Shown here piece after piece: positions 3,601 through 62,399 of a DNA stretch of 64,000 nt. Numbering within the stretch: the stretch's first letter is position 1; every line of letters starts with the position of its first letter. The DNA comes from Balanoglossus misakiensis (Eukaryota; Animalia; Hemichordata), in assembly GCA_040954595.2 (NCBI GenBank), contig CM082576.2, positions 17,407,028 through 17,471,027 of the forward strand. Direction: 5' to 3'. The notes under the pieces are model-generated. The model saw only the letters and a list, made by a program, of their open reading frames with translations, had not been told where the DNA came from and did no database searches. Made by a program: the position numbers and the translations under genes.

Positions 3601-6600
3601 AATTTATATTATTTTTTTTTAAAGTTCTTAACTTTTGCATTAAAAAGTCTGCTTTGTAGAAAAGTTAATAATATACAAAATTAATTCATTTTTAGTTTAC
3701 ATTTTTTTTCTGCTACATGAGTGACCCAACATTACTTTTTGATTATGAACCTTCCATTTGTCCAACATGGCAGAAACAACCATCCTGACATTGTGTCCAC
3801 TTTAGGAGATTTTTATTACTCATCTACATCCAGGTAGCAAAGCTCTGTTTATGGAAGTGAGATTTATGGAGATAACTGGGTGACATCATATCACTAACAT
3901 TAATATAGAACCATACATTATTGACAGAAACATTAGTTGACTAGTCAAACACCTCACTCACCTCCCATATGGTACAAGCCTTTGACTTTGGTAAATAATG
4001 CATCAGCACTGAAGTTGACAATTGGAACCTTCTTTCCCGGTCCAGACCATATTAAGTGTGAACCATTGCTGAAGCATAGACAAAAATGCATTAAATATTA
4101 CAGAATCTGCTAAATATTTCACATAGTGCATTCAGATGTCAATCACAGGCCAACATCTGTACCAAGTTTCAATACATATAAATTTGGTGCATTACTGTGA
4201 CATTGGTCAATATGGTGATTGTGCTCTTTTTTGACAATATTTGTCAGAAATGGATATCTTTCATATACCATTTCATGAACACCAGTATGCACATTAGGCC
4301 ACATGAAATCTACATGTAATCCTTTCTTGTCATTCTGAAACTTTTAGTGTACAAAATTTTACTTAAATCTGTTCATTTGACCTTAAAGCCCCCATGAGCT
4401 GCAACTTTTGGGAAATTATCATGTATATATATCATGGACGGTACCGGCTGTTTGGAGGGGAGCTCAATCTAGTATTGGTAAAATACTGTTTTACCACTGC
4501 TGGCAGTGGTAAAACGGGCCCCTGAACGAGCATGCAGCGGGGAAAATGTGCGGTTAAACCACAGTCGCGTGGGGTTAAACCAAAGAAATAACATAAAAAT
4601 ACTGTTGAATTTAAATTTTATTTTGGAAATGCTCCAGGGTTCTCCACGGGGGGTTTTTGAGGGGCGGCCTGCCCCTCTGTTTTTTGCGGCCGCCCCTCTG
4701 TCGTATGTGCCGCCCCTGCATTTGACAACACCGCCCCTTTGTTTTACCCGGTAGAAAACAAAGCTCGCGCGTGGCTAGTTATACTTTGCGAAACAACGAA
4801 ACAGCGAAACGACGAAACCATTATTAAAATAGGGGCCAGTCATCAAAACGGTGGCGTATGATTTTTTTTAAAGTTTCCAAATTAAAACGTAAGCGAGCCA
4901 AGAAAACTACAGGTCAGATAAATTGTTTTCTCGGAAATTCAACATTAGAATTTGGCGTTGGAAACAAACGGCGGGTCGCCAGTTCCTGGTCTGCGGCCTG
5001 GTACTATGTAGTGGTAGAGTCGACGTCGTGTGCGCGCAAACGATTCATGCCAAACTGCTACATATACACAGTGAATATACGCGCGCGCACAACGAAACCA
5101 CAACAGATCGAAACCTCAAAATGCGGCAGCAACTGACACTATTTCCTTAAATACCACAAGGCGGGGAGGCATGAATTGCAATTAAGATAATAAAGAAATT
5201 TCGACAATGATACTGTGTTGTGTGAGTTACATGTGTTTCTATATATAACTACTACTCTTACCCCCCATCAGTGTTTGACCCTCGAAAGCTTACGGACACT
5301 ACTGCTTTGTTTCAATTAATCCTTAGCCCTGTGAATATACTCGTACATTGACCTTTTGGGGCGGGATTCTTTTTTGGCGCGCAACCACTAGTACCAGGCC
5401 GCAGACCAGGAACTTATTTGGAAACTTTTAAAATAATAATACGCCACCGTCTTGATGACTGGCCCCTATTTTAATAATGGTTTCGTCGTTTCGCTGTTTC
5501 GTTTCGCTGTTTCGTTGTTTCGCAAAGTATAACTAGCCTCGCGCGTTGTGGTTTATAGTGTTACTAGCGTCTTTTGGGGGTGGACGTGAACAAAATGGTC
5601 GTTCACACTTTGTCATGCACCATAGTGACACTTAGCATGGCAAATGGAAACCGTTTCACACATTCAGAAATGATGTCAGTCGAACGTTCCAGAGAAAAAC
5701 CATCGTGTTATCGACATGACCTAATTACGTGACCTTTGACAGTATGCGTCCTTCCTTCACTTTGTAAACCCGGAAGACAGCAAATTTTTCACTGGACATT
5801 TTCATGACAGCGACTTCAACAATGATTACGATTTTTGGGGGTTTCATTGACTACAATTTTATACCGATCAAGGCCATTAGTAATCCCGACCGTGACAACG
5901 ACTCTGGAGCCGATGTCGAGAGTACGGGTGGTCGCGCGCGCGATCGGGGACCCAGCCAACTTAACTGCATTGAGCTGTGCACGCGATGTCGCGCACGGTC
6001 GCGGTCAGTCGATGTTAATTTTATGCAAATGATATGCTAATTTTTATGTAAATTATCCGCCCCTGTTAATTTTCAAAGCGTGGAGAACCCTGTGCTCTGT
6101 GGGAGTATATATATATTTATAATATACCTCATGCTAATACTGTGTCGTGATTCGCCAGAATCCGTCACGTGATAGGAAAATAGAATCGACTATGAACCGC
6201 TAGGGAAATAGCAGAAAAAATATAAACCGGTCACGTGACCAGCGTGAGTGCGCAAACTCGGTCACGTCCATCAGCGTCGCTTCGTCTGACACAATGGCCA
6301 CCGCGGAAGATGTCGTCTGCCAACCTCAAGAGAAAATTGCCAGATTTTCCCAGCTGTTAGCATGAGGTTTATTATAAAACACCTATAGCCTGGCCTATAT
6401 TCGGGCCATAGCAGCCGTTTTTAACCCCTCGTGATTATGAGTTACCAGAATCATATGCTATTTGCCTCGGCCTGCGGCCTCGGGAAATAGCATATGATTC
6501 TGGTAACTCACAGCCCCTCGGGTGTAATAAACGGCCGCTATGGCCCTCATGGCCAGGCAATAGGTGTTCAATATATATATTTTGTCATAAATACATGTTT

Positions 6601-7828
6601 TCTTGATATAATATAAGGCAATATCATTTAAAAGACAGAATTAAAAGCATCTGAGATTAGCCTAACCGAATTACATTGTATTGAGTTGCAGCTCATGGGG
6701 TTTAAAGGCTGTACAATCGGTAAAAGTATATTTTTTTAATTGTGCATTATTGGTTTCTCCTTTGTAACTTGCACTTGCTTTTGAAATCTAAGGTCGTGAA
6801 CTTAGTCAATAATTGAAGGAAACTGCTGAGTCAGTATTTTTCCAAAAATGGTTTGTCTATGTCTGTGAGCTTATAGTACATTTGTCTCTTAAAATAAAGC
6901 GTGGTGACCATATATGTACGATTTTAACTGACCAATTAATTTATTTTTACTTGACTGGGCTATGTGTAAAATTTCTTGAAAATGACAATATTGGGAAGAG
7001 ACAAATGTGCAGTTTGTAAGTTTACGTTCTGCATGAAATAATTAAGCAATACAACACCCCCGGCCATGGTATACCACGAGATTTTGACCAGTTCACGACA
7101 TATACACACGAGCGATAGCGAGTGCGTATATGGAGTTGAACTGGTCAAAATCGAGTGGTATACCATGGCTGGGGGTGTTTTATTGCTATTATATTATGCC
7201 AGTATATTGAAACTTTGCATAAAACATTTTAAAAAGGCATTTTCTTTGACTATGATATATGACTGTGGTATATGGCTAATATATCACGGTCACGTGTCGT
7301 GTCTCGACCAATCAAATTGCGTGATTTACACCATCAATATACTGGTATAATATAATATAATACATGATACATGTTTATTTCAGTGTTCTCCCCATGAATT
7401 TCTGATAGCGTAGCCGCCAATTTGCCTAAAAATATCAACAATTGTTATGTTATCTAAGTTCTATTGTCTTCTCAAAATTAAAGAGTAGTGGGCACTACGC
7501 TTTAATTGCTCGGGGGGGGGGGGGGGGGGGAACACTGTCATGTAAACATAAAGACACATGGATGCCTGTACATGTGAGCTGAAAATATTATGGACAGAAT
7601 TTAAAGGTTAGGACAATACATGTTATCTGCTCCTTCCGATTCCTCTTCTTCCCCCTCTTCTTCTTCATCATTGCTGTCTTTATCCCTATCAGAATCACTT
7701 GTGGTATCTGAGCTGTCATCCTGATCATCACTTTTAGATTTGTCAGTGTTGTTATCACTAGCAACAGATGCAGAGTCCGGGTCTGAATCTGATGTATTAG
7801 TGTCAGGTGTGGTCCCTGTTGATGTCAT
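512..7828 (-). CDS. TTLL5: Tubulin polyglutamylase TTLL5, 5' part (join 7828-7620, 4068-3962, 2381-2299, 618-512; continues left of window)
   Basis: Spliced translation ...[99 protein letters not shown] matches the recalled N-terminal TTL-domain region of TTLL5. All junctions are GT-AG with compatible phases. Confidence 0.9.
775..1937. mobile_element. Non-autonomous TTAA-target DNA transposon (Kolobok-like)
   Basis: TTAA|AGTGGAACG ... CGTTCCACT|TTAA; CpG-rich interior. Confidence 0.7.
2299..2381 (-). CDS. TTLL5: TTLL5 coding exon 3
   Basis: cag|AT AAA...GAA|gtaagt; (D)[27 protein letters not shown]. Confidence 0.93.
3480..3598 (+). rRNA. 5S rRNA gene, single copy, antisense within a TTLL5 intron
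   Basis: GCCTACGGCCATACCAC...CCGATCACCGAAGTTAAGC...GTTAGTACTTGGATGGGTGACCGCCTGGGAATACCACGTGCCGTAGGTT. The ends pair (GCCTACGGC/GCCGTAGGT), the internal control region looks intact, and a T-run follows at 3612-3620. Confidence 0.95.
3962..4068 (-). CDS. TTLL5: TTLL5 coding exon 2
   Basis: cag|C AAT GGT...GGA G|gtgagt; [35 protein letters not shown]. Confidence 0.88.
4635..6092. mobile_element. hAT-like MITE with 5-bp TSD
   Basis: TGCTC|CAGGGTTCTCCACG ... CGTGGAGAACCCTG|TGCTC. Confidence 0.8.
4773..5538. mobile_element. MITE with ~100-bp TIRs and 8-bp TSD (Merlin-like)
   Basis: TCGCGCGT|GGCTAGTTATACTTTGCGAAAC ... GTTTCGCAAAGTATAACTAGCC|TCGCGCGT; TIRs contain CGAAAC repeats; superfamily tentative. 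Confidence 0.8.
6117..6572 (-). mobile_element. Crypton-like hairpin element, family C
   Basis: Hairpin 6378-6570; IR pair TATACCTCATGCTAA (~6123) / TTAGCATGAGGTTTA (~6357) abutting the hairpin; no evident TSD. Confidence 0.7.
7042..7355 (+). mobile_element. Crypton-like hairpin element, family A copy 1 (314 bp)
   Basis: Near-identical to 21528-21841, 23359-23672 and 23738-24051. Confidence 0.85.
7620..7828 (-). CDS. TTLL5: TTLL5 first coding exon (acidic Ser/Asp/Glu-rich N-terminus); exon probably begins at acceptor 7959
   Basis: accATG at 7828 with an in-frame upstream stop; ends AAC AT|gtattg, phase 2, matching the next exon; strong acceptor ttttctcatttcag before 7959. Confidence 0.72.
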
Positions 7829-17528: not shown

Positions 17529-20500
17529 GTTAATATGTTGTTATTATTATTCAAATTTAGGTCAATACGAATGCAATGAGTGTCACGATGAAATCTTTTC
17601 AGACATGCAAGTACTCAGGCGCAGAAAATCACTGACTGCGACAGCACTGTCCTCAGCGCAGCAGGTCGATTCAACCTGTAAATATTTACAGATTGAAAAT
17701 GCTGACTCTGCGTAGGGTACCTCTGCGTAGTAGGTTAGCTACAATGATTGTTGCGGGTGCTGCTAGGTTCACAGCCCTACCCGCAGTCGAGTGACCGTGC
17801 CCTACCAGTGTGTTCTCGGCGTTAAAGGACCTAGGATAACGCCGAGAACACAGACCTATTGAGGCTATTCGCAAAACTCCTGCGCCTGTATGGTTGTTTA
17901 CAAGACTGGTGTATACTTTGACCTTGGCTGTCTCTGAGCACGATAGTGACAAATCACAAGCGTCCACGCCGTATGCGGCTCTTTTAGATTGATAACAGTA
18001 GGGTAGTTTACACAAACACCTCTGGGAGGTGTTGGAAATATAATCCATTTTTCAGATACGTACACCCCCCCCCCACCGGCACCCTTATTTTTCAAGTGGG
18101 GGCCTTCCCACTTTGAATAATTTTGAAGCCCCCCCCCCTCCTGCCACACCCCACCATGACAGCTTTTCCCCACAAGTACAGATCTAGACATGTGGATGTT
18201 TTTACTAATGATGTCCCTCCCTTAAAAATTTCGTGAATTTACTCTGCAAGTTTTCCTTCACACTGATAGAAAGTAATAAAGCTGAAAAAGTGAAAACAGT
18301 GTTTGCGGGGGTGGGGGGCCTGCAAGGTGTTCAGCTGTTGTGCGAAGCAAAGGTATGAAAGTTAATGTTGACATAATTATAAGGTAGGTCACAGGTCATC
18401 ACAAGGACACCCAAAATTGTGTCAAAAATATATGACCCACACTGGTCCATGTCCAACAAACATCATCCCTATGGTTAGCCTAGAATTATTACAGTCTGTC
18501 AAAAGTAGGTCAAAGGTCACATCAAAATTTTCCCAAATGTTTAGAGCAAGTCCTGTCTATTGCGGCACCCATAGATTTGTACAAAAAACCTTGGTCTGGT
18601 ACTTTTCCAAGAGCTAGTGTTAGACAGATGCCTTTTTTATAATTATCAGTATTTTAGGTAACAAAGGTTTTCGGAAGTCCATTCTGTGTGAAATTTGGCG
18701 ACAATTCCGAAAGAAGCAGTCTGATTGACCTCACTGAAGAGGAATTTACCTTTTTGGCCGCTTTTTGCCCAAAAAGGGTTATTGTTAGAAAATATTAAAA
18801 ACAAACTTTTCTTCATTTTAAGTGATCTAAATGATAAATGAAAGGCCATAGGAATATAGCTCTACAAGTTGCAGTGTGCTTGTTACTAAACTTCAAGTCA
18901 TGGTGTTGTGTTGTTGTTTTTTGAAATTTAGCCCAGTCAGGATTTGGACTAGTCACAGCAAGTATTAGACTGTCGACAGTCCCTCGCGCCTAATGTGTAT
19001 CTTTTTTGAGGGCCGAAGGCCCGATTCGGCGTTTCGTGTGAGGGCCGTAAGGCCCGAGTGACTGTTATAGCTCTCCGCGCCCTCACACGGCATTGTGGAG
19101 AAATTCACCGGTAACGCAACTGGCATGATTGACAGTTAATATACTTCATAAACTCATTGACCAATCATATTGTCACGCAGTATCGGGTCAACAGGAAGTG
19201 AAGCTGTAAAGCGGGCAAATGCTCAGTTTGACGCCGCCCATATGCAAATTTTACTATGTCATTTTCTGCATGCATAATTAATATCAAGGCAAGGCTTACA
19301 AGCTATAACACAGTCACTTTGTCCCTTTAATGTGGAAAGTGAATGTTGACATAACTAGAAAGTAGGTCAAAGGACCCCAAAATGTGTCAAAAATATTTGT
19401 CCCACACTGGTCCATGTCCAACAAAGACCAGATTTTAGATTTGCAAGTACGGTAAATAACAACATGTGTTAAAAGTAGGTCGAAGGTCACTGCAAACATT
19501 TCCAAAATATTTAGAGCAAGTCCTGACAAGAAAGTAGGTCAAGGGTCATCACAATGACTCCCAAGCATCCAAAAGCTTTCAAAAACTTCATAACAAGTGG
19601 TGGTCATCATTATATGATAACTTATATCCGGAAAAGAAAGAGATGTGCTATCTATATTTAATTTGAAATGAATATGGGCATATATGAAATGAGCTGAAAC
19701 ACAATTGAGTGTAGGAGCCATATTTGATGACCATTCAAAATGTCATAGAAAAGAAAATATTAAAAACAAACTTTTCTTCACTTTCGGTGATCTGATGATA
19801 AATGAAGGTCCATTCTATATATATATAAAGTGGTGACTGGTGTATTAAAATAATACTGAGCCCACTCAAGACAAAATGGACCAAAAGATGCAAGGCAGTG
19901 CTCTGGAGGAAACTGTTCTTGTTTTTGTCATTCGCTTGAGGTCTGTTGATCAGAGCTGGTTGTGTGTCACAGTGTGAGTGGGCAGTTATCATTTCAAGCT
20001 GCATAATTTTTAATTGCAATGATTTAAATTTTGTATGAAACATTTAGGTTACTTTGATTTGATCTTGTTCTCCACAGGTTGTTGACAGCAATATTGACCC
20101 TGAGATGACACTCCTGACGTATTTAAGGAAGAAATGTATCCTTTACATGAATGATCACACAAACAACGTGACTATGAACAGATAAAAACTCAGTTTTGAT
20201 TTCTGGTAGTTTTATCAGACATAGTACTTTGCAGGTACGGTCACCGTTTATTTTAGTTCCAGAGTTGATTTTATTGGAAGAATAATGTACTCCCCGAAGA
20301 CCAATAATGGACGAAAGCACGCATTGTAAAGTATGACATAATGTATGAGGCGAGGCTGAGTAAATTATGGAGAACAGCGTGTGCTTGAGTCCAATTATAC
20401 ATGTACCATACATTATATGTAATAATGTACAGTGATGACGTCACAAAATTCACTGGAACTGATAAAGCTGTAATATTTAATGCATATACTTTGTGTAGAT

Positions 20501-23500
20501 AATACCACAGAAAAAAGAACTGACTCACTGCATGCATACTTGTATGGCAGTGGAGAAATGGCGTGAAATGAAGTTGTATGATCCTTAACTACGTATATAA
20601 TTCAGTGCGACTAACTGGCTCTAAGTTGGGTTGTGCTGAGGGAGGATGTGGGGCCTGTACTGTCATGGTTTCTAAGTTTGATCATGTTTTGAAAGAATTA
20701 AGGTAAGTAATTTCATATAACAATGATTGAGGATGACCCCTTTCCTTTAATCCGAGGCTGCAGATGGGATTTTAGTCAATTTGTGATTTTGCATGTGTAT
20801 GTGTAATTTTATCTTTACTGCTTTTTATCGTATGCAATTTTATTACTAAAATAAAAACTTTTTACCCTGTATTTTTAATTTCATTTATGAGCCGGGAGAT
20901 GATTATTAATTACACTTAGTGGTGACAATAACGTATTTGAATTAAATTGAGATATCCAATTGTCACTCTTTTACAGCCATTTCTCAGTGAATGCTTGCCT
21001 GGCACCAGTTTGTGCCATGTATGGTTTAGCAGTAACTACTGTTGAAGGAATTGGTAGCACTAAGACTAGACTACATCCTGTACAGGTAACAAGAGACTGG
21101 TCCAAATAATATCACAGTTCCTTCTGGAAGTAACCATGTGTTTTATGTCTATGTAATTTCATTCTTTCCAAGACTTACTGTCTTCTGTGTGCTTTATTGA
21201 TTGTCTGTACAATATATTAAGATCCAGAAAAGAGCTTGATGGCCAGACCTGTCAGGCAGAACTACTTATTCAGTTCACCGTTTACCGAACCTGTTATGCT
21301 GTTCATAATCATCTGCGTTGTCATGAAAATGTTTGAGTTAAGTGTGTACGTGCAGAACATAAACTGGAAAAGTGCGCACATTCGTCTTTTTCCGTATGAT
21401 TACATTGAGAAAGGCTAGAAAACTCTCTTCTACTATTGTCATTTTCATGAAATTTTACATATAGCAATAGTCAAATAAAAATAAATTGTTATCAGTCAAA
21501 TAAAATCGTATGGGCACTGCGCTCTATTTAAGCAATAAAACACCCCCAGCCATGGTATACCACGAGATTTTGACCAGTTCACGACATATACGCACGAGCG
21601 ATAGCGAGTGCGTATATGGAGTTGAACTGGTCAAAATCGAGTGGTATACCATGGCTGGGGGTGTTTTATTGCTATTATATTATGCCAGTATATTGAAACT
21701 TTGCATAAAACATTTTAAAAAGGCATTTTCGTTGACTATGATATATGACTGTGGTATATGGCTAATATATCACGGTCACGTGTCGTGTCTCGACCAATCA
21801 AATAGCGTGATTTACACCATCAATATACTGGTATAATATAATTTGAGATAAACTTCACTAAACATTTTGCTCATGAAGACCAACCATTCGTGAAAAATGC
21901 TTACTCAGCAGTTTTATTGAATGATTGACTAAATTCGTGGCCTTGTGTTTCAAAACCTCTTATATTTTATTTCGGATTTTCATAATACATGTACATACAA
22001 ATGAGAAAAAAAATCCACAATTCAAAGAAATTACAGTAGTTTAAATTTTACTGATCGTACATCCTATTAACCCTGTCAATAATGCATGTGATGTTGATGT
22101 ATCACGTGGGACATTCAGTTCATATCTGGTTTCTCTGTGATTCTCTGAATATCTTCTTAATTGTTTAATCACACAGACTTTCTTGTCATTGGGGATGAAT
22201 TTTATGGTCTATTTTTTTTCTTTATTAAGGAACGGATCGCAAAGGCTCATGGGTCGCAGTGTGGTTTTTGCACACCTGGTATTGTGATGTCCATGTATAC
22301 ATTGCTAAGAAATGACCCCAAACCATCGTATGAAAATCTGACGAGTGCTTTTGAAGGCAATCTCTGTCGCTGTACTGGATATCGACCCATACTGGAAGGA
22401 TACAGAACATTCACAAAGGTGATTATCTTAATACTGAGCATATCTGTATATGTGTGTGTGTTTGTGCCCATGTGCTTGAACATTGCCGAAATTTCATAAC
22501 AGTTACCTAATTGATGGTTTAGACAAAATCAAAAATGGTATGTTATAATAATAGCCGGTATATGCACTTCTGGTAATATACGTTTTGGATACACTGGCAT
22601 AAAATTCATAGAAAGAGATTTCATTGATATGTTGGTCTTTATTGTAAAATACATGTATTACTGTCACCAGGAAATTTGTTATTTTACCAGTAAGTCTGTT
22701 GTCAAGAACCTCACAATCTACCTTGATATGTCAATTGTACATTATGTTGGTTACTGTGGATAATATTATATCAGTGTAACATGGCCACGAATACATTGTT
22801 GTGATTGGTTAATTGAGAGCCTGTTTTAATTTATGCAAGCCATGGTTAAATTAAGCAATAACCCCCGCCGCAGACGGGTATACGCGAGATTTGGGTACAA
22901 TTCGAGACATGTAGCACGAGACGTCAGGCCAGTGCTATATGGAGCGAATTGTACCCAAATCGAGTGTATACCCGACTGAGGCGGGGGTTATTGCTATTAT
23001 ATTATATCAACAATTGTTTTTGTGGCATATCAGTGTCATGTTCTTACCGAAACGGCGTCAGAAAGAGAAATTACGATCGTGAACCAACATGGCGACGATG
23101 AATGTAAACACGAGCAGGTGGGATCGAGCATTAAACATGAAGCAGACGACAAAAAGTGACAAGACGGGCATCGCGCGTGGCAAAGTGACAAATATTTCCA
23201 CAGAGCAGTTCCAAAATAAAACGTCCGTTAATTCAACAGTATTTTTGTTTTATTTATTTGGTTTGAACACGCGCGACTGTGGTTTAACCGCACATTTTGG
23301 CTGCCGTATGCTAGTTCAGGGGCCCGTTTTAGCACTGCCAGCAGTGCATTATTGAGTATTATATTATACCAGTATATTGATGGTTTAAATCACGCTATTT
23401 GATTGGTCGAGACACGACACGTGACCGTGATATATTAGCCATATACCACAGTCATATATCATAGTTAAAGAAAATGCCTTTTTAAAATGTTTTATGCAAA

Positions 23501-26500
23501 GTTTCAATATACTGGCATAATATAATAGCAATAAAACACCCCCAGCCATGGTATACCACTCGATTTTGACCAGTTCAACTCCATATACGCACTCGCTATC
23601 GCTCGTGCGTATATGTCGTGAACTGGTCAAAATCTCGTGATATACCATGGCTGGGGGTGTTTTATTGCTTAATTTTAGCATCGCTGGATTGAGCTCTCGT
23701 CCAATCAGAATTGCGGACGGTAGCATGATATAATATATTATATTATACCAGTATATTGATGGTGTAAATCACGCTATTTGATTGGTCGAGACACGACACG
23801 TGACCGTGATATATTAGCCATATACCACAGTCATATATCATAGTCAAAGAAAATGCCTTTTTAAAATGTTTTATGCAAAGTTTCAATATACTGGCATAAT
23901 ATAATAGCAATAAAACACCCCCAGCCATGGTATACCACTCGATTTTGACCAGTTCAACTCCATATACGCACTCGCTATCGCTCGTGCGTATATGTCGTGA
24001 ACTGGTCAAAATCTCGTGGTATACCATGGCTGGGGGTGTTTTATTGCTTAAATAGAGCATAATGCACTGTTATATTTGCCCCTGAATATGAATTAATGTA
24101 CAAGTTGAATGAGTAATCAAAAACAGGGAAGGCAATATTTAGATATTATGAAAAACATTTCTGGTACTTCAAAATAACATTTGTTTGACAATGTGACGTG
24201 GAAGTTAATTTTGCGATTGTCTTCATATTTGGAGTATGCGAGTATTTCTGGAGAGAGTTAAAATGCCAATTCTGGGGCCTATTTCATTTAACCACTGTTA
24301 CAACAAGAAAACACTGTTCTTTGAACATGGCCATTCAAATTAATTGTAATGTCTAGAAAGTAATGAAATGAAATTGATATAATATATTAGCAATAACCCC
24401 CCGTGGAGGGTGGGTCTACCACATTTCCACATTTCCCTTCATATATGCACTCGCCTGCAGCTCGTGCATATATGTCTCGAATTGTGCTATATCTAGTGGT
24501 ATACCTGCCCCCGCGCCGAGGGATATTATTACTTAAATACTTTATTTTCACTGGAATTTATTTTGCTGTAAATATAAATTTTGAATAATACTTCTATTTT
24601 ATTTTCACTATTTCATGTTAACTTTATAATGTGAAAAGAATAGGAAATAGGAATTTTCACTGGGATTTCATTTTAGTCCCAATTAATGTTTATTGAAGTG
24701 TTTGCATATACACAGAGGTCGGGTGATGATACTGCGTGCGTGTATTTTTGACGCACTAATTGAAAAAATAGCACCAAACTGAGAAAATTACGTGTCAAAA
24801 TTGATTGATCACTTCATGTATTCAAACTGCAAGCTGCAAACCAATAGGCAGTCTTTTTGGTGACATGCTTTTGTGTGTGGAACAGTATTGTGTGGGGCGA
24901 CTATTTTTTTCATATACACTATCGAAACAAATGAAAATTGACTGCCTCATGTAAAAGTAACATTATATGAATTGACACACCGGAGAGGTGAGCAAATCCA
25001 GTGGTCTCAGGTCTGACTCTGAGACCATCCATTTTGTTGCCACGTTTTTACTCTGTCTGGTTTAAAGGGTTTTAAAAAAATCGTAACCTCTATACATGCT
25101 AGTGTGTACACAATATTGCCAGGCATGCTTTTATTCTAGGGTCATGTTTGGTGTCAGGTGACTTTCACTGTTCCTGACAGCATCATCCATGCAATATGGT
25201 CTGTAGGGGGTACCTCAGGTATTATTCAAATGACTCGTAATTGGATGCCCACTGTAAACTCATTATATTGAATAGAGCTCGAGGTCACAGTACACTGTAT
25301 AGTGGTTGTCGAGGGGTTTCACAAAAATTACGAGTAGGCAGCTAAATTTGGGAAGTAGGTGGCTGGTGGCAAGCTGAAGAAACCATCAGGGTGGGGTTTG
25401 GGGGATGGAGGGGGTGGTTGTCTCACTAGGTGGCGAAAGGCTGAAGCTATTTAGGTTTTGCAGAACACAAACGCATTCTCTGCATTAAAAATCCTAAATT
25501 GAAGTGGTATAATTCCTGCCCACACTTCCCCATCTGCAGCCAGGCTCATAGACTGTCGACAGTCCCTCGCGCCTAATGTGTATCGATTCGGCGTTTCGTG
25601 CGAGGGCCGAAGGCCCGATTCGGCGTTTCGTGGTGCGAGGGCCGTAAGGCCCAAGGGACTGTTATAGCTTGCAAGCCTTGCCTTGATATTAATTATGCAT
25701 GCAGAAAATGACGTACTAAAATTTGCATATAGGGGCGTAAATTAAGGTCACCGTGTTCATGAGTTTATGACGTATATTAACTGTCAATCATTTTACAGGG
25801 GCATTTTCCCACAGTGCCCGTGTGAGGGCGAAACAAGGTATAACAGTCCCTCGGGCCACGCCCATGCCCGAGGCCTTACGGCCATCGCACCACGAAACGC
25901 CGAATCAGGCCTTCGGCCCTCAAAAGATACGGGCCTTACGGGCCTCGCACGAAACGCCGAATCGATACACATTAGGCTCGAGGGACTGTCGACAGTCTAC
26001 CAGGCTCACTGCTCAATTGTTTTAGTGATCTCAGAATGAATGACTGTATTGGATGACTTTTTTTGTCATCTGTGTTACTGGTCTTATATTATTTGGAAAG
26101 TAAAATAAGTTTCAATCTGTGTGGCATTAATATAGAAGCTGTTTACCTTTAATAAAAAGACTATCTGCCATGAAGATACCACAGACGTTTGATCTTGATG
26201 TTGAAATAATAATTTACAATCATGTTTCTCTGTTTTAGACAGAAAGAAATCAACAGTCTCTTCATATCTGATGACTTTCATTTCGAAAGTAAGAAAACAA
26301 TTAGGTCAGGGTCTGGGGAAACAAATACAGTGTTGATAATTCCCCCCACCCCTGGTCAGGCTGCCCCCCAAAAGAACTCCAAACAAAACAAACAACAAAA
26401 TCTGGCAAGGGGGACAATCACCCTTGCTACTGTCATTCTCGATGGAACACTTTGTCTGTATTGTTATTATTATTATTTCATCTTTATTTCAGATTATAAA

Positions 26501-32500: not shown

Positions 32501-35500
32501 TGGCATGAGGTAGAAATGTTGGACCAATTTTTATGGCAATGTGAGAGACACAGCAGCTGAAAGAGTCCTCGAAAGAGAATGAATATTAACGTGGAGAACA
32601 TTTATTGTATTGCAGAGATTAATTTAAGTGGAAACTTCATAAGTTCTCTGGATTGATTTTTCATGTTATACTCATTGAGTTTATTTTCACTCCACCATTT
32701 CATTGAATCCGAACAAATTTAAAAAATCAGAACATTTTTTTTACTGCATTTCAGAATATAAAACACAAATGTTTTCTGCGATAGTGGAAATGCTGCGGTG
32801 GTTTGCTGGTCATCAAATTCGAAATGTTTCTGTAAGTATGTCACATTAAATTTTAATTTTCATACATGCAACACCTGTATTCGCCACAATGAAGATATGA
32901 GCCTGTATTTTCACTAGTGAAAATACAGAAACAGATTTTCAATGTGTATCAGGAATTATTTTTGAGGACATCCAAAATCACCACACTAACAATGTTGAAC
33001 TGAACTGATTCAACAGTAATATGGAAATCAGATGCAATTTTGTTGGGTTATATTATGTTTTAAATTTGTCTGATATATTAAATTAATATTTATGATCTTT
33101 ACCATAGGCTGTTGGTGGTAATATAATGACAGCAAGCCCTATCTCTGATCTCAACCCACTTTTTGTAGCTGCTGCTTGTAAGCTCACACTGGCATCCAAA
33201 TGTAAGTTCATGTGATCTTGAATTCTCTTACCATGGCTCCCACTTCACTTTTCATTATGCATTGCAAGTAGGGGGACTTGCGCTCCGTTCATTTAGCCTT
33301 GCATTATTACACCAATTTCATTCAAATGTGCAGTCACCATATACAGTGTTCATCATAATGGCTTTACCCAGCCAATCTCACCCTGCTTTCTTTTCTGCCA
33401 CTCTCCTTTTTAGTATGACAATATCACAAATGTTTCTTTTTACTGGGCAGGGTTCAAAATTGTAGGGAATATTGTACATTATATTACCATGACCTGTGCG
33501 TCGCATTTTAATTGGTTGAGATGAACGTCGTCACTGACCACAAATACTCAGTAATGGTTTGTTTACATGCCCGTAAATCTGAATAGTAATATTAGAAAAC
33601 AGTTCAGTGAATACAACATTTTGCGTAACACAAGTTCCGGGGCCCCCTAGTCTTTTACGTGGGACATTTTCGTAAATTTTGACGGTTTTCTTGAGTTCGT
33701 TGGCAATAAAATGGAAATAACTGACTCCGCCCTGACCATTAACGTTTGTTTATTGGGATCGGGCTCGAAGAAAGCCAAAATTCATGGGCTCGGAAGCCTC
33801 GCCCGTGAATTTTTTGGCTTTCCCCTCGCCCTTGCCCATAAACAAACGTTAATGGTCAGGGCGTTGTCCATTATTTCTATAATATTCCATACAGAAACTA
33901 ATGACCAAACATAGTATTTGCCTGGTGGTATGACATCCACATGTACATTTTTTATTATTGTTCAATTCAATCTTTATCTACTCAACACATACCCTTTGGT
34001 TAATGCGGATTATTGTAGAAGTGTGCACATTCCTAGCCTATCGGATAGTATTGTTTCTGGCATTGAGTTCTTACGCAAATATACAAGCGTAGGTCTTTGA
34101 TAGACTCTCTCACGTCCCCGTTGGCCGTCCATGCAAGCTTATGGTCTGATTGCATGTGTGCCCGACAAGGTTCGCTACACAACACCATATGGGGCTTCTC
34201 CTTTGCTAAATGGTTGAGGGCGCGTCAGTGAAGAGCCTTGTAGCGAACAGTGGGCTGTGAGAAAGTCTAAGGTCTTTGATAAAACATCATGACATATGGG
34301 CCGCCGCAAGGGAAAAGGGCCCTTATGCATGGATTTTTCGATTTTTATTTTTTGTCATTTTTTGATAGTACCTGTGCTCCTCTTTTCATATGTGTGCCGC
34401 TCACTATGAACTTACACCTGGAAATGGCATTTGTGGCCCATTGAATGTGACATATGACCTTTGACCTCAGCCCACAAATAAAATTCACTGTTTTTGTCGC
34501 CTATTCAAATGCAAATTACTAAAAATGACGTACACTTGCATAAGGGCCCTTTTCCCTTGCGGCGGCCCATATAGTTTTTGTGCACTTTGTACAGTCAAAG
34601 TATGCAACTGCACCGATAGTTTTTAGTGTGTTAACAGAAATTTTACCAGGTTCACACACACAAACGATTTGAGACACTATAGTGCCTTTCACACATGCAC
34701 ACTTTCTACAATATTAATTTGTAAGTGCCACGTGTGAAAAGGTGAGAGCGGCCCTGCGCCGCTCTTTTCTGGGACGGTGTTGAGGGGTGGGACCTGGGTC
34801 GGGGCGCCGCACTAAACAGCGATTCAAATCACGTGTGAACAGAAACACCGTACTAAACGCCGATCTAAACGCACTCTGCCGATGCGGTTTGTCTCATTAA
34901 GCGCCGCATTAAGCGTTGAGGTTCACTTTACTAAAACAATGGCCGAAGCAGTGTCTCGAGGCAACAATTGGAGTGACGCGGAAATGGCCAAGGCACATAC
35001 ACAGGAATTGCAAACTCGACCTCCGACGACGATTTTGTAGCATGGACTGCAGTCTTCCAATCGCAACCTCCAATGAAAGGTTACCATAAACGGGTATCGG
35101 GTCATTCAAATGCCCATGAAATCGGCGTCGACGACATTTAAAAAGCAAATTCAAGAGTACCATATACAGTAAACACATTACTGGATCCGCCATTGTGACG
35201 CTGCTGTGGACGCGCGTAGAGGGCGATGACCCCGTCCCTTTTATACACATGTGAATGCAAAACTGTTTGAGTTGCTGATACGAAATGTTTACCAACTTTT
35301 ATAATCCCAAAAAGGGCGCCCTAACCATGGCACGTGTGCAAGCGGCTTATGGTAAACACAGAGCATTAATCCTTTGAGTCGCGTTGTGTCCACACACACA
35401 CAAAGTTTGTGTATAGGCACTAAGGCTCAGTCCCCTAATAGACAATAGGTTGCGGAGAGGTGTAAATCCTTACACCAGCTCAGGTCTGGCCGGAAAAGCC

Positions 35501-41500: not shown

Positions 41501-44500
41501 GCTGTATATTGTGATGATGTAACCCCAATAGAAGGTAAACCTTTCTCTTAAAAAATTGCTCTATCAAACACTTTTATGTGTACTACCAATAAATTTATAG
41601 TATCGGCTTTGTTGGAAGTGTTTTATAATAACCACCATCACCACCACCACCACCATCATCATCATCTTCTTCATCTTCTTCATCTTCTCAGGGCACTTTT
41701 TGCCCTGCTTTATTAAAGTTGAAAACTGCCACATATTCACTTCTCAAATTTGTATGTATGTATTGTATGTAAATGTGTGTGTGTATGAATGTTATTAACC
41801 ATAGAGAACATGGCACAATGATCACTAGAGTTGTGGCGCAATGGTGGTTGGGAATGTTGGCATAAGCCTTGGACTAAGCATGGCAGGAAATTCTCGTAAA
41901 GTTTTCGTCATATTCCTAATACTTCAATGACACAAGGCAATGATAGGACTAAGGCTCAGAAGCATATTTTTATCAATCAGTGTAGCCACAGCTGTTCGCA
42001 TTTGTGTGTTGTCTACAAACAGTACCTAATGTCACACCATTAGAGTTACCTAAGGCTTACTCTGTGACTTTCAGTCAAAATAATGTATACACACTGAGCA
42101 GACTGCAAGGAAAGATTGAGCCAGAAATGTGCACAGAGAGTAAGTAGTGTTCACGGTGCCCACTCTTACGTATACGTTCAGTTCTAAGTAGGCTGACAGG
42201 CATTTCCTTTCAAAGGTGGGGGTGTATTATCAACCAAATGATGTAAAATGGGGTTTAACAGAGGAAAGTGTATACAGTAATAGGGTTATGGACAAAATAG
42301 GGGTCTTTATGGTCTCGAGGTCTGAGCCCCTCGTCCGTACATGGTGTGATAAATCATCACTGATTTTATTCTTTTTCTACTTGCGTAGGTTGGTACCTTT
42401 CATTCTGTGTTAATGAGCATCTGGGACTGGGTTATCGAGGAACGAAAACCCGCAGCATGTTTGTTTACAAAAAGTCAAAGTGGTGTGTACCTGAGTCAGA
42501 GGCTTATTGTTTTCTGAGAAGTGTGTGTGCAGTCATACAGCACTTGTTTTTAGGAGAACAGTACGATTTTGTTTAAAACTCATATTGTAGCAAATTTTTG
42601 ATTGTGTCTACTTTTTTTCTATTGGCAAGCGTGCCCTGGAATCAGAGCCATTTTAACTTTGAAATTGAATTTGAACGAGCTGCTTGGAGTCATTTTGCCT
42701 ACATGCGCAGAGCTTGTGGATAACACAATAGGAATTTTGCTTTAGTTGGCCTAGAATATTGCACATATCGGAAGCTTTGATCGCTATTGAAACAGCAGAT
42801 ATGGTTGAACGAAGAGGAGTTTTTAGTGTTAGATAATAAGTGTTCTAAATCAAAAATATTCACCTCTGCATTATATGTTTAAGTCAGCTATTATCTGAAA
42901 CAATGTTATAGTCCGTCTAAATGGTATTTGGTAACTGATGAAAGGTTTACCATAATGGATTTTGTGTTATTATTGCAATGTACTGCAGATTATTCTGAGG
43001 TTCACTACTACATAACTTTGGTATAGCTCTCATTACTGTGAGAGTGAAGAAAAATAGTCCCTTTCAAATTTAATATTTTGGAGCATTTTTGACAAGCAAG
43101 ATTTGGTTATTTTTTTGCATCACTTGTGAAAATAACTTCTGTGTGGCACAGATCGCGCGCGGAGGGCAGAAGTTCTGTCATGTTTTGGGAATTTTATTGT
43201 TCTCTGAAATGTGTTGACAAGACAGACGTGATGTCTCGCTGATCTGTTTTCAGTGATGAAACCAATATTTTAAATGTCTGTACCTGGGTCTCTGCATAAG
43301 CTTACAATCACAAACTATTGTGTGACTCAATCGTGTGACTTCGGAGTTTCATTTTGTTTTGTGATCATAATTTGGGATCATACAAAATCATACAAAAATG
43401 TATCCAACACAAACGTCAGTTTGCAAAAATATCGAACGCACCAGACTTTATGTCGCCTGTTGGCAGTGTGTGCTCTTTTGGCCAACAATAGGCACTTCAT
43501 ATTATATTAACATTACATATGATAGTAGGGACCCTGTTCTGAGATGTGCGTTCTGGACAATAGAGTGACTTTTGAAAAGTGCAAGGCACACATAGAATGT
43601 TTCATTCCCAGATACCAATTTTGCAAAATTTACATAGTAATCTAAGCTGCTTCATTGGATTTTTAAAGCAAAACGTAATTTCAGCTCCAAAATGGTTCCC
43701 ATTGAAATGTGTGTCATAAAAATCGATATTGTTTTTGCTCTCTTTGAGCCAATATACCCCGTGGAAATCAGACCTATTGTTAAAATTATTATTTTTATAT
43801 GATTCTTATTTAATTATTATAATTTAAACAGTATGGTTTGAAATATTTTGTATATCAGTGAATGGTATTATTATTTTCTATTATTATTTTACTGTGAAAC
43901 AGGAAATTATGCCGCATTCTTTTGTTGGCATGTGGCAGTTTAAATTTTATGCCAATATTTACAGTGTTTATTGGGGAGCAAAACGCCAAACAGATACATC
44001 TTTCTTTGTTTGACGTCATCGTATACGAGTGGTTTTTCGCGGAGCAGTGCAACTTCGAGCCGCAGGCGAGAATTGTACGCTTCCGAGAAAACCACGAGTA
44101 TACGATGACGACAAAGAAAGATATCATGGGATTATATATTTATCACATGAACAGTCTTCTTATTTTTCGTTAGAAGAGGCAGGCCTAAAAAAATTCAGTA
44201 TTTTGCAACAATTTTGGAGCGGTGTCGTATTTTGCTGAGCGGGATTATTTTCCCCTACGAGATATATGTTGGGAGATTTTATGAATGATCAGCGATAGTT
44301 CATCATTTGCATATATAAATTCAGCCAGGCCGTTCGCATGACACCTACCACAACCTCCCACTTTGTCTATCATTCAACTGTTGAGTTTACAGGTATGGGT
44401 GGTTATACTCACTCACTTACTGATGTTTAATGCCCAGTTTTAATTATGCGCATCCGACTCAGCAGGTAATCCCACACAAACAAATGCGCAAATAATTTCC

Positions 44501-47500
44501 TGTTTCACAGTATTATTATTATTATTATTATTATTATAATTATTTTTATTTATACAGTAGAGTTTAAATTTTTCTGTTTATAGGTGAATTGTATTTGGCG
44601 CTAGTGACAAGTTCCAAGGCACACGCCATTATCAGGTAATGATTACTGTGCTCTGTAAAGATAGACAATCTCCTGGTGGTGGTGCTGGTGTAACTAAGGC
44701 CAATGAAAACAAATGTGTGGCTCCGATAACCAGACCACTACTTTTTTTAACTGGCCCTCGCCTGTTTCACAGGTACAACAATGCCGAAGTTAAAAAAATG
44801 CAAAATCCATGATAAAAACTAAGAAAAAGCAAAATCATGTAAGACTATGGATTGACATGGCGTTATCTATTAAGCAGATGCTCTGATATAAATAAAAAAA
44901 AATGAATTTTTTTTTCTTCTACCTTACTACCCTGTTTCTGAAAAGTTATCTGAACCACACAATCAATTATTGCGTTGGCATTATGCATGTGTTGTAGGTT
45001 TTCTTGTAACATATTATAAGGTTATTCACAAAATACCGGGATTTATGTCCAAGTACATCGTACAGCGGAGGTATTGTCCGAGACGCGCAGCGTCGAGGAC
45101 AATACCGAAGCGTACGATGTACGAGAACATAAATCCTGGTATTTTGTGAATAACCTTATTATTATACACCTTTTCTGAACGTTCTTCATGAACGATAAAG
45201 AATAAATAGGCCGCTATCGGACTTTTTAGTTTTCAGACACCGCCATGATGTAATTTGCATATCGAACGCACCTTCATCTCGCGCATCAGGTGATGCTAGT
45301 GTCGAACTGCCTGTCTCGCGCGCGACGTTCTACGCTGCGTGCGCTGAGCTCGTTCTGGAACTTGAAATGAACGCGCTCGCCTGTTCGTTCACAGATTCCT
45401 TCGACTGAAATTTCAGCGTGGATTTTGACTTATTTCGCATCACCAATAATTTTGTTTAATAACGGCTGTGTACTTTTTATATAAATTTTTGTCAGAATAG
45501 GGTTAATATCGTCATTGTTTACATTGATCACCAGTCCTGTGAGGTCAAAGTCACAATGCGTCCAATAACCCTGGTGTATTGGACTCCACGTCCTCATTTG
45601 AATAATTATTGTACGGTGATACCGGGAATTATTGTATTACGGAACTCCATAGGTTACAGCAGTAGGTGTATAATAATATCAATAAAGTCTTTCTTTATAA
45701 TTATTCACTGGTATCCCTCTGTGCAATCCTATATTAATTTTGTTTTGTTAGGTATGATCTGCTCAGTTGGATGCAGTACACTTGTGGCAGTTCATTAAAC
45801 CCCGGTGCGGGGTATAAAAGACCCCCCAAATCAGTGGCGAATCTTAATGCCGTTTGACTGACAACAGACAACACCAACGATCTTGGCTCTATGAAAATCG
45901 GCCCAAACAGGTCCAAGCATAAAGAATTACACCACACAACGACAGTAGTTGGCTTTATAAACACACACAACATAAAGTTATCGACGAAAAAGTACACGAG
46001 CTTTTGAAACAACGATGATTTTGGGAGAAATCTGGTTTCAGTGCTATTCAGAAGCGTCCCTGAGAAACAATAACCACGCCATTCAAACAGTTGTCAATCG
46101 CGTGGAAGTGTAAATTTAGTGTTCAATTATTTTCTGTGTGCATGAGATCAATTACACAGTCATTATGCACGACGACCACTCCCAAATAAACAACTATACA
46201 AACACACGTTAATCCGAACCCCGGTACTTTCCGCACCGGGGTTTAACCCTGTATACAAATTGGGTGATAAATTTACATGTCTTTCAGTGCAGCCATACTT
46301 TAAGTCAATATTTGTACTAGAGTTTTAGCTAGCATACCACAGTATTTTTTGAAAAATCGAAATGAGCGATGAAAAGTGAAATTGGGAATTCGAATTGGTG
46401 GAGCATGTTTGTGGGTTTGGTTCAAAGGTGCATCCTTGGGGTAACTTCACCAGCGGGTCATATGATTATGAAAAGTGGCACCAGCGGGTCATATGATTAT
46501 GAAAAGTGGTGTCATTGCATTGGTGCGTCTTAGTTTAGACCTCTGCTTGAGGTGCTAATATTAAAATTTCATCGTTTTTTTTCTTTGTCTTCTGCTGTCA
46601 TAAAAAGGTGTGAAATTGTCTGCGGCTCGTGTGGGACAGAAAATCCCCAACTCGTGTGAGAATTATGATTCCAGGTCCGTTGGGAATGTGAGATTCTCTC
46701 CAATCCTTCCCATTCTACCGTCGGCCAAATGTGATTGTTCAGTGGATATATCCAAATGGATAGTTGGCACAGTTCTCTGGGCATATTTGGAAGGATATCA
46801 GACAGCCAATTGCGTCCATCCAGGGTCTCTGCCCATGAAGTCAGGGCTTTAACCGCTCATGGCCTTTATCAGCCAGGGTCCCTGCCAGTGTGCCCTCTAA
46901 GCCCATATGACGCATCACTGACTCAACAAACTCACTGGCGACTCAATAAATTTATCCATCTTACATGCAAAGGTACATGGCTGACTCAGGGAAATAATGT
47001 TTGTTGGAAAACACTCTGGCCCCTGTTGAAACCATCTTGCAAGCAGGAACATGACATTCTGTGCAAACTCCTCTATTAGTTTTTACCACTGTGATATTGC
47101 TTCCGAGCTGGACGGGCTCCACTCAATATGCCTGATCAGCAAAAGCCACACTGCTATTTCCTCTCAGCAATACTATGGTGGAATTGACATTCTTTTCCCA
47201 CCTCCATGTTTGTGTGGAATTCTGTTATTTATCCAAATAGGAATAACGGCCGCATCGATTAACTATATAAGTTGCTTAGGAGCATAAAAATTTACATATC
47301 ATTAATATGTAGAACGTGATCTGGCCAATGAGGTGGCCAGAAAGGGGCGTCACTCACCCGTTTCCCTGCAATGAAAATTGCGACCTTTTCTTTTCAAATG
47401 TAAATTTTTATGGTCAAATGCTCTGTTTGGGGATATCCTGTAAATTCAAAACAAGAAAGGACAAGTCAATCTTGCCTCTGGAAGAGAAAAATTTTCACCA

Positions 47501-52900: not shown

Positions 52901-55900
52901 AAAATAAATAAAATAAAAATACTGTTGAATTTACGGACATTTATTTTGGAATTTCTCTGTTGGAATATTTGGCATTTTGCCTTGCGTGTCAGATGCCTGT
53001 CTTGTCACTTTTTGTTGTCTGCTTCATGTTTAATGCTCGATCCTGGTACATTACATTATGTCAGTGCAGCATGATTGGATGTAATTGCGGGAAGCCATGA
53101 TGGTAAATAGATCGTAGAGTACTATTTCCCCATTATCAAATTGGTATTACATTTTGCTAGTCCAAGGCGTTTTTCGTTTATGTACGTATCCATGAATGTA
53201 TCAAATCTAAATTAGTTCATTGCCAAAAACAGCTTGCATTCAAAAATGTACATTTGATGTATACGTGTTTGCTACATTACATTATTGCTTACTGTAGACT
53301 TCATGCACTTACCTGCTCAGTAATTTTGACAATCATTCCTTTGTATTATAGACATTCTTTGAGAAGTGCAGACATCATGTAGAGTTGTATGTAATCACAC
53401 AATGTATAAAGTTCGGGTCCCCATGCTTTGGTAAGATTTATATTTTTCATCAACAGGTAATGGAACGTACCTTGTTTCACATCGACAACTCATACAGATT
53501 ACCAAATGTGATCGTAACAGGGTATGTGTGTAAGACCAACACTCCATCTAATACTGCATTCCGTGGTTTCGGAGGACCTCAAGCAGTATTCTTTGCTGAG
53601 CACTGGATGACAGACATTGCTACAAGATGTGGTATTACTCAACAACAGGTAAACATCTTTCACAATAAAAAAAACAAACTATTAAAGGGACAAAGTCTCT
53701 CTCTAGCTGCCCATTTTCCATTAATTATGTTTGATACAAGACACCGTTTATGTTATTCTACATGTGGATATATAGTGAATCAATGTTCAACCACACACAT
53801 CCATCCAACTTGTAGACACAAGAGTGAAAAACTCGCCAAAATGAATAATCGTAGAATAACATAAATGGTGTCTTGTATCAAATATAAATAATGGAAAAAG
53901 ACTGCGAAAGAGAGACTTTGTCCCTTTAAGACCTAGAGCAAAGTAGTGGACCTAAGCAAAAAGAATTTACAAAGACATATTCTAGACTTATCAAACTCAA
54001 CCTACCTACACTTGCAGAAGAGAGAGGGGAGATCAGTGTTCGCGGTCAAAATTTTGACAGTGCGTTTTGCGTACGCAAAGGCTGGGCAAAAATGCGTATG
54101 ATCATTATTTCAATGCGTAACTGGCCACTTCCGCATTCCAGTCCACAATAAACAAAGTCAACATGAGAAAACATGTATCAAAATTGATCACAATCACACG
54201 TAGACAGCGTGCTTAGTTTTGCAATTCAAGTACTAACACTGTAAGAGTGTGAAACCTTCGAGTCATCAAAAATGAACCTCTAGAATTTTGAAGGGTTTCT
54301 TTTTCCACGCGAAGCGAAAATTTCCCGTGCTCGGTCAAAACGAAAGTCGGCAACAGGTGGCCCTTCCATAGTAAGAAGCATCAGATCATCGGCATGCTCG
54401 TCGCCTAGTCGATTGCGTCGTGCAGTGAGTACGCGGTTTTGGCAACTGAATCCCCGTTCACAGGGCCTGTGAGCGAAGCCACGGATATTCGATATTCCAA
54501 CGGTTTTGAAACTCGGTGTGACCTTCTCCCGTGCCGGGTTGCTTTCGCTTTCGCTTTACTGCCTGCGTCGATGTCACCGTGGACACGTCCGACGAGGTGG
54601 CAATACAGGCGGCAGACTCCAAAGTAGGCTGCGCGGCTGGCATCTCAGCGGCCGTTTTGCTGCTTGAACTCGCAACAGATTCATCTAGTGATGCTCCCGA
54701 TGTTTTTTTGCTAGAAGCACTAAAGTTGAAAGATAGCAACGAGGATTGCTTTGACATGATTTTTGAGCTACAGTGGCACCAATTACTAACAGTTAGCTAC
54801 GTATTGGCTCTCTGTCCGTGTCAGTGAAACGTGGCGCGTGTCGCAGTTAGTCGGAACGAAACGATTTGCTCAAAAATTGATACAATTTCGGGCGACACCA
54901 CTTGAGTTACAATCGCGCGAAAAAAATGCTCAACATGTTACTATTTTAAGCGGCGCGGCGCGTGGTGCTCTGTTGCAATTTTGTTTGGGGGCAATGGGCG
55001 AAACGTGCGCGATAGGCAATTGCTGTAACGAAAGTAGTATTTCAAGTGCGTACAGTCAAACGCACTGTCATCAGAAAAATGCGTTTGAAAAAAATCTTAT
55101 GCGTATAATACGCACTTTTTAGCGTAACCGCGAACACTGGAGATATGATTGAGACTTGCCTTAATATATTGAATTGTATGCTAGAATGATGTCACTTCCT
55201 TATTCAGTGTAATTTCTCCTTTGCTCATCACCAAACGTGACATAGTTAAATAATAACACATGTTAGCGAGGGCAATATCATGATCTTTGGCCTGCACGAG
55301 GGATGGTGATTTTGATAATATTGATGATGGCTCGGGCATCATCAATATTATGGTCAGAGATCACCAGCCCGAGGGCAGGCCAAAGATAATGATATTGCCC
55401 GAGCATGACATGTGTTATTAATTTTATTATACCGAACAATTGACCATACACAGCACAGAGGGTTGCGTCCATTTCGTATGATGCAGGTTGCAGTGAACTA
55501 AAATATCTCGCTGTACAGTGTACCTACTTCGAACTCAGATTTGGTGTATTTACTGTCCGTTTGCGGTAAAATATCGTCTAGTTGAACAGCTGTTAATCCT
55601 GTGTGTCGCTTTGAAGCCATAGATGCGGGAGTTGACTGATCGTGAAGGAAGCCATTGAACGACAGTTTGTTATGCGCAGAAAAGATGCACAGAACCTAAA
55701 ACCCGTTCTCAGCCTGTAATATTCTCTCAGCGCGCGCGTATCCCTGGCCCGTAGCCCCTACCTACGGGCCATATACTCTGTCAACCATGTAATATCACAT
55801 TCTTTTCTATGTCACGTGGTATGGTCTCAGCCAATCAGTAGTACGGAATACAGAGTGAGGTGTAATAATATGATTTGCAGTGAGCAGAACATGTCCATCA

Positions 55901-62055: not shown

Positions 62056-62399
62056 GTAAGCTTCTTCATCAGTTTTCTTTCTTTGCTTTTGATCAAAGTA
62101 CAGACATTTGAAGAGGTCTTATTATGAGAGAAAACTTATGGATATTTAGAATTTGAAAACAGATAACCCACTTGTAGTAAAATGCATTTAGAGAGGGACT
62201 TAACTGTAATGCTTTTCTGAATAAAGCTTGATATTATATCAAAAAGGCAGTGGGATTAGATATTCTCTCATGGGAAGTGTTCAGAACGAATTGTGCTGTT
62301 ACTCTGCTTCATAAACTATTTCAACATATTTCCACTTTGGCTATATAATAATAATGTTTTATTTACCCAAGTATTAAGGGGAACATGATGAGTAGCGAA

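Follow-up and report, generated by a model that had tools for sequence, protein, structure and literature searches.

Hairpin-ended elements of Balanoglossus misakiensis with tandem G.A mismatches on one strand: a candidate folded-strand design of CryptonA

The CryptonA elements come closest, among described mobile elements, to the hairpin-ended repeats that we analysed in a 64,000-nucleotide stretch of Balanoglossus misakiensis DNA (hereafter the window). As far as the accessible text of three accounts goes (PMC3212892, PMC5753468, PMC13465315), CryptonA elements, like the repeats of the window, make no target duplication, have no classical terminal repeats and give rise to short gene-less copies that far outnumber their parents. 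In the part of the 2011 study of Kojima and Jurka that is accessible, no terminal repeats were found for animal Cryptons (PMC3212892); Eulor5/6 were described as Cryptons in PMC5753468, and Glomhoppers in PMC13465315, again as judged from partial text. Unlike what is seen here, the same partial texts (PMC3212892, PMC5753468, PMC13465315) describe CryptonA without hairpins, GA mismatches or single strands. Homologues of the hairpin design that are linked to a tyrosine recombinase (YR) gene encode DUF3504 recombinases, as CryptonA does. A literature search for Crypton hairpins, GA mismatches or single-strand substrates found no description; Repbase Reports, Dfam, figures and most subscription papers lay outside its scope. 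Repeat-database curators are said to note a hairpin in Eulor5/6-type entries, and the hairpin itself may be known to them.

Two bacterial systems offer a parallel for the hairpin. According to the accessible part of PMC4246890, a one-strand fold of about 150 nt in the CTX phage, attP(+), brings together two inverted sites with unequal spacers, a single strand exchange takes place and replication resolves the product. The likeness to the window elements is that one strand's fold, recombined by XerC/XerD in the case of CTX, joins two inverted sites with unequal spacers, one of which is internal after insertion. Unlike the elements studied here, CTX is bacterial, relies on host enzymes, uses one fixed dif site and obtains its single strand by rolling circle, and the accessible text does not describe GA/GA blocks (PMC4246890). 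The single-strand step is the phage's own, whereas for the window elements we infer it. In integrons, as set out in the available portion of PMC2727003, unpaired bases of attC set strand choice and an unpaired spacer sets efficiency. The attC/IntI pair resembles the present case in its imperfect one-strand hairpin, its tyrosine recombinase (a candidate here) and its unpaired features; the extrahelical bases of attC are, however, single and at fixed positions, whereas the GA/GA blocks described below are paired, stacked and variable in position.

A further comparison is provided by CryptonF-1_cRei, an active element of Chlamydomonas that shows clean excision yet copy gain, by a mechanism that the accessible text calls more complex than the model (bioRxiv 10.1101/2022.05.23.493040). 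Its target resembles one element terminus, as here; by contrast, it belongs to another Crypton group, the only one whose activity has been seen, has a 5-bp shared motif, and no hairpin is mentioned in the text searched.

Hairpin-ended elements in the window

The window is eukaryotic, as recognized by xanthine dehydrogenase/aldehyde oxidase exons, a LINE reverse transcriptase fragment and a 5S rRNA. Most of the hairpin repeats reside in introns of the xanthine dehydrogenase/aldehyde oxidase gene; hairpins occur in or near introns in both orientations. The broken LINE (26492-28733, minus strand) comprises a reverse transcriptase frame (26989-27816) and adjoining frames. The 5S rRNA (3480-3598, plus strand; one match, 113.8 bits) was the sole match in an Rfam scan of the window. 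A short coiled-coil frame (62377-62727, minus strand), with Pfam matches below threshold, is possibly a piece of LINE ORF1. A MITE-like family (38798-39135 and 53682-53929), which is fully palindromic, has TTAA ends and lacks GA/GA loops, served as a control.

Families A, C, D, E and F are built on a common plan (Table 1): they start with TT, continue with a long hairpin, an internal repeat and a body, and finish in TAA, their 3' end being the complement of the internal repeat. The plan is the same in family B, with a disturbed 3' end. The hairpin arms of the window families measure 60-90 bp. What the 3' end of the elements repeats is the internal site, about 145 nt in, and not the 5' end, so that classical terminal inverted repeats and long direct repeats are absent. 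Family G elements are probably of the same class as the GA-hairpin families.

Family A inserts without target duplication, as shown by an empty allele, by 25 contigs carrying an empty paralogous site and by two paralogous empty sites within the window, which align without gaps; at most one T is shared at the insertion. The base that follows the element is T in 8/9 distinct window copies, and the left flanks have A, T or G as their last base. The four A copies are 98-99% identical and have no Pfam match, which makes them an interspersed, multi-copy and non-coding family. At the left end of A, the summed contig depth, which is not a copy number, rises from under 5,000 to over 300,000. Each hairpin forms the 5' end of a non-autonomous (gene-less) DNA element. 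A MITE of a DDE superfamily was ruled out, given the lack of terminal inverted repeats and of target duplication.

Two further observations concern the elements as a whole. The segment 22851-24540 holds a cluster of same-class insertions, with A3 within B, A4 at the 3' end of B and B2 adjoining, which suggests that the elements target sequences resembling their own ends. A box resembling CCAAT precedes the 3' end by 25-50 nt in several families (at 21794, 23698 and 55831 in the window, and at the loci L030, L028, L029 and L211); in a circle or tandem this box would lie upstream of the hairpin and the YR gene, and it is possibly a junction promoter.

Table 1. Positions of the hairpin-ended elements, their parts and the host gene in the window
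Feature	Position	Strand	Remarks
Family A element, copy A1	21528..21841	+	314 bp, TTA...TAA ends; depth step, empty-allele joint 21527->21842
A1 5' hairpin	21531..21673	+	arms about 66 bp
A1 outer tandem GA/GA block	21564..21640	+	21564-65 opposite 21639-40
A1 middle GA/GA block	21583..21620	+	21583-84 opposite 21619-20, beside bulged T
A1 apical GA/GA block and c-GATA-g loop	21596..21607	+	
A1 internal inverted repeat	21674..21696	+	immediately follows the hairpin; predicted to form the lower strand at the junction
A1 3'-terminal repeat	21820..21841	+	complementary to the internal repeat, score 41
Family A copy A2	7042..7355	+	5 differences from A1
Family A copy A3	23359..23672	-	inside B, without target duplication
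Family A copy A4	23738..24051	-	at the 3' end of B
Family B element	22851..23733	+	A-related ends, GA sites decayed, hosts A3
B2, decayed B-like hairpin	24385..24540	-	
Family C element	6117..6571	-	c-GCA-g loop
Family D element	33479..33882	-	
Family E element	45014..45676	+	c-GCA-g loop; three GA sites in majority sequence
Family F element	55246..55868	+	
Family I hairpin	43998..44122	+	two GA/GA blocks, c-GCA-g loop; missed by the original prediction
Family G element	18966..19310	+	branched end, GAA-loop mini-hairpins
Family G, further copies	about 25549-25850; 25650-25999	+; -	
Xanthine dehydrogenase/aldehyde oxidase exons	22161-60837	+	Pfam: Fer2_2, FAD_binding_5, Ald_Xan_dh_C, MoCoBD

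Strand bias of the tandem G.A mismatches

The original prediction, made from the letters of the window, was that the mismatches in these hairpins are tandem G.A pairs which can form on one strand only. The 4-mers that it cited as flanking the GA sites are all in place, with two approximate positions in B being off by one base. In the DNA fold of A1, the sole internal loops are CGAG/CGAG (21564/21639), CGAC/GGAG with the bulged T (21583/21619) and CGAG/CGAG (21596/21606), and the hairpin is capped by c-GATA-g.

Hairpins were collected with a finder that accepts Watson-Crick pairs only and is strand-symmetric, and which therefore favours neither strand. It returned 13 hairpins in the window, nine of which contain GA-class loops. 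Mismatch types were not strand-symmetric: GA/GA made up 19/27 of the two-by-two loops (12 of the 19 being contributed by the four near-identical family A copies) and AG/AG 0/27. All the window hairpins with at least two GA/GA loops (6/6) carry them on one strand. GA sites also survive in the majority sequences of the families, on one strand; in family E, the majority letters restore two Watson-Crick pairs (45126 and 45137) and gain two GA appositions (45051 and 45068). As for the A hairpin, no variant at a frequency of at least 2% is listed in contigs of the same organism (runs X1/X2), contigs being assembled in a way that drops rare variants.

The partner inverted repeat lies downstream of the hairpin on the GA strand in the four A copies, C and E and, by alignment, in D and F as well; the GA sites of B and B2 have decayed. 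The claim that the GA strand is in every case the one on which the hairpin comes first thus holds for the four A copies, C, D, E and F, but breaks down at the level of single copies elsewhere. The YR-linked copies L038 and L047 (along with L048, a duplicate of the latter) show TC/TC on the hairpin-first strand, an inverted inner arm and near-perfect arms. Siblings of L038 and L047 carry GA/GA (1/1 full-length and 6/6), and we read the two flipped copies as arm-to-arm inversions that occurred after insertion.

The GA sites have no uniform spacing: their offsets (about 37, 55 and 68) are shared by A, B and E and differ in C, D, F, I and the YR-linked families, a pattern more in keeping with a role in stability than with a fixed code. 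The analogy with attC, in which the GA/GA sites were seen as a strand-selection or protein-recognition code, survives in part. The kinship with single-strand tyrosine-recombinase sites is upheld, in that the design is found at CryptonA ends (see below), and the notion of GA/GA as a code read by a protein is unproven, as the offsets vary.

The same bias was observed beyond the window. One genome record, G001, is titled as a bacterial MAG and contains megabases of eukaryotic DNA (L024-L031, L140-L199) with Cryptons, Helitrons and LTR elements; this DNA is probably host contamination. In a 1.2-Mb sample of it, two of whose three contig blocks were picked around YR loci, the two-by-two loops were GA/GA in 18/113 cases and AG/AG in 1/113. 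All 444 hairpins found were grouped into 157 clusters, a set enriched for YR flanks. Among the cluster representatives, GA/GA accounted for 31/86 loops, as compared to 0.54 expected from single-mismatch frequencies, and AG/AG for 1/86. Every hairpin of the cluster set with at least two sites had all of them on one strand (16/16). CGAG/CGAG made up 95/129 of the contexts. A looser detector applied to G001 gave a weaker contrast genome-wide, with GA+TC in 18 tiles, AG+CT in 11 and CA/CA in 18 of 1061. That selection acts on the fold of one strand, as originally proposed, is supported by the large excess of GA/GA over the null, the near absence of AG/AG and the same-strand placement in 16/16. Neutral decay was rejected: it would need two adjacent transversions per site and would produce AG/AG as frequently as GA/GA.

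Association with CryptonA recombinase genes

No tyrosine recombinase or Rep gene was found in the 140 of the window's 156 frames that were scanned. YR genes were collected from other sequences in three ways. A search of genome contigs with a YR motif gave 8 loci, encoding proteins with DUF3504 and Phage_integrase domains; a search for DUF3504 returned 29 matches, spread over three genomes, of which 23 were treated as distinct elements; and an alignment search of metagenomes gave 79 loci (best 80 of 180 relatives), 54 of them with 1 kb on both flanks.

A GA block was present upstream of the DUF3504 YR gene, on the coding strand, in 7/23 elements from the genomes and in 28/54 loci from the metagenomes, the latter being mostly one family cluster from one assembly; downstream, on that strand as well, the corresponding numbers were 0 and 0. 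The background was 10/1061 tiles, and the flanks of four G001 Helitron loci gave 0/70 tiles (80 kb). About ten distinct end families show the hairpin design at YR loci. The locus L030 is a complete example, with a hairpin, an internal repeat, a 527-codon frame and a terminal repeat, and the model of its protein (pLDDT 88) has a Cre/Xer-type fold. The proteins P0001-P0003 match DUF3504 with E values of 1e-30 to 1e-36 and Phage_integrase with E values of 1e-8 to 1e-11; P0001 combines the two domains with the catalytic motifs and, in its model, a Cre/Xer fold. In the catalytic R-H-R-H-Y set of 22 YR sequences, H, R, H and Y are invariant and the other R is 90% conserved. The fold of the CryptonA YR is closer to Cre/Xer than to IntI4 (Z scores of 18.1 for Cre, 16.9 for XerA and 14.0 for IntI4). 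This comparison overturned IntI4 as the nearest relative, a place suggested by its being the top catalytically active PDB match by sequence (40.3 bits versus 37 for XerA).

Hairpins located downstream of YR genes (L040 and L041) were considered as a second orientation and rejected, the relatives of the L041 hairpin occurring away from that gene; we read both as neighbouring insertions. At L041 (G001, C15 and C18), a very large satellite array with a period of about 410 bp (1403 matches) encloses both a YR gene and a GA hairpin.

Other searches were negative. A blastn comparison of 12 window repeats with 2.07 Mb of fetched sequence (229 loci) gave no match for any hairpin family. In viral contigs, the family-A end pattern gave 23 loci and 0 real hairpins, the YR motif gave 0 matches and YR alignment 0/25 confirmed. 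A search for the apex motif gave one match, by chance. Judging from their architecture and insertion signature, the window families are very probably non-autonomous CryptonA elements; autonomous elements of like design were seen in other genomes.

A folded strand as candidate recombination substrate

With the 3' end of A1 set in front of its 5' end, the stem of the computed fold gains about 22 pairs, which run across the crossover, and two bases stay unpaired. The computed junction excess, which falls on the crossover strand, amounts to +2 in A, D and F and to +3 in C and E; it sits at 1-4 nt from the crossover in each of the aligned families, the alignment of the family B junction being ambiguous. 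For autonomous copies, the junctions were taken from natural tandems instead of computed 5' starts. Three natural head-to-tail tandems (L068, L132 and L211) display the same junction fold, and their net excess is +2. Another such tandem, L121, is degenerate and has no fold across the junction. No direct 3'-to-5' joint was found among the family A contig joints listed, which carry spacer letters. In the sequences and their computed folds, the crossover lies within an imperfect hairpin whose unpaired features differ between the strands. The unpaired spacer of attC has its closer counterpart in the excess of 2-3 nt where the two ends are joined, a feature missed by the original prediction.

The insertion target was examined in one YR-linked cluster. 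Its left flanks read CTA-H, with C in 24/39, T in 36/39 and A in 38/39 followed by a variable base, and these columns match the element's own 3' end; the 46 right flanks of the same cluster are simply AT-rich (the counts for both sides include some duplicate rows).

A slightly better than even case can be made, from sequence evidence, for what we consider the best reading: a folded single DNA strand would be the substrate of the recombinase, the GA/GA blocks would bias strand choice and the elements would likely be mobilised by CryptonA. The GA/GA blocks, together with the GNA loops, are predicted to let only the hairpin-first strand form a stable rod. In the scheme that we propose, the GA strand, once exposed in replication or transcription, would fold, and base pairing between its 3' repeat and the internal repeat would bring both ends together. 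The recombinase would then cut and rejoin the GA strand alone, releasing a single-stranded circle, in which junction and internal site would pair to form a bulged duplex. A single strand exchange would insert the circle behind a short target resembling its own 3' end, with the bulge blocking the second exchange, and the resulting junction would be resolved by host replication. The role of the GA/GA blocks would be to steer strand choice and to provide stability, and they would also keep the palindrome from being perfect. Such a scheme would result in clean excision plus copy gain; single-strand excision followed by a single exchange would account for the behaviour of CryptonF-1_cRei. We infer the fold, the excision as a one-strand circle, the single exchange and the resolution by replication from the architecture, the strand bias, the YR association, the junction excess and the one-sided target. 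The broader proposal that CryptonA is a eukaryotic integron/CTX-like system, in which one folded strand is excised and integrated, a 2-3 nt bulge enforces the single exchange and GA/GA and GNA select the strand, seems to us evenly poised between true and false.

It is rather unlikely that these elements are CryptonA members whose duplex circles recombine by the classical two exchanges, as has been proposed for Cryptons (PMC3212892, accessible text), with the hairpin as an accessory cruciform or binding platform and GA/GA as the cheapest palindrome breaker that keeps a fold. Although the nearest fold is that of Cre and the GA spacing is variable, as this model would have it, the occurrence of GA on the hairpin-first strand in every family and the recurring 2-3 nt excess between the junction and the internal site are left unexplained, and target similarity is found mainly on one side of the crossover.

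We regard as improbable a role of the fold as a replication signal (a priming site or a rolling-hairpin origin) that would convert an excised single-stranded circle into duplex, without being a recombination site. The inner-arm flips with homogenised arms seen in L038 and L047 are reminiscent of the flip/flop hairpin ends of parvoviruses, and branched ends do occur. These flips are, however, rare and single-copy, as judged from the siblings with GA, instead of the even mix that rolling-hairpin replication produces, and the stem passes through the crossover point.

Equally improbable is selection on RNA, whether as a structured leader on the recombinase's mRNA or as an intermediate. In YR-linked copies, the strand with GA upstream of the YR gene is also the coding one, so that orientation does not argue against RNA; the predicted strand gaps are larger under RNA parameters (3.9-12.9 kcal/mol) than under DNA parameters (0.5-7.5), with controls differing by similar amounts, and G.T exceeds A.C by 18 to 7 on the GA strand. 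By contrast, the hairpin loops point to DNA, not RNA. A c-GNA-g triloop is found on the GA strand in 16/26 clusters and on the other strand in 1/26, and GNA triloops outnumber GNRA (3) and UUCG (0) loops. The CGAG/CGAG sheared-pair block has an NMR structure in DNA hairpins, and GNA triloops form stable loops in DNA (accessible text of PMC10085684 and PMC8163305). Moreover, the motif is retained in gene-less copies lying in either orientation in introns, and there is no poly-A tail, target duplication or Rfam match.

Finally, it is very improbable that the window families are Helentron/HINE-type (HUH rolling-circle) elements with convergent ends (PMC4067079, PMC10288648, both in part): like HINEs, which also favour T-rich targets (PMC4067079, accessible text), they have subterminal inverted repeats, one end hairpin and no target modification, but the palindromes of HINEs are 5-10 bp long in the same partial text, the surroundings of the Helitron loci lack the GA block that YR loci have, and the window flanks are not TT on both sides.

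To return to the folded single strand as recombinase substrate, the end design supplies what a direct test of the question requires: a defined substrate in the form of a 180-nt oligonucleotide, P0001 as candidate enzyme, and clear mutants. If this reading is true, sheared GA pairs and GNA triloops would have a biological job, sheared G.A DNA would have a widespread natural role, and orphan hairpin-tail repeats could be classified by a structural rule. The design would also suggest an integrase that is compact and has a short, loose target. Animals would possess a single-strand 'peel-and-paste' reaction carried out by a tyrosine recombinase, and folded-single-strand recombination, known from bacterial integrons and the CTX phage, would reach animal genomes.
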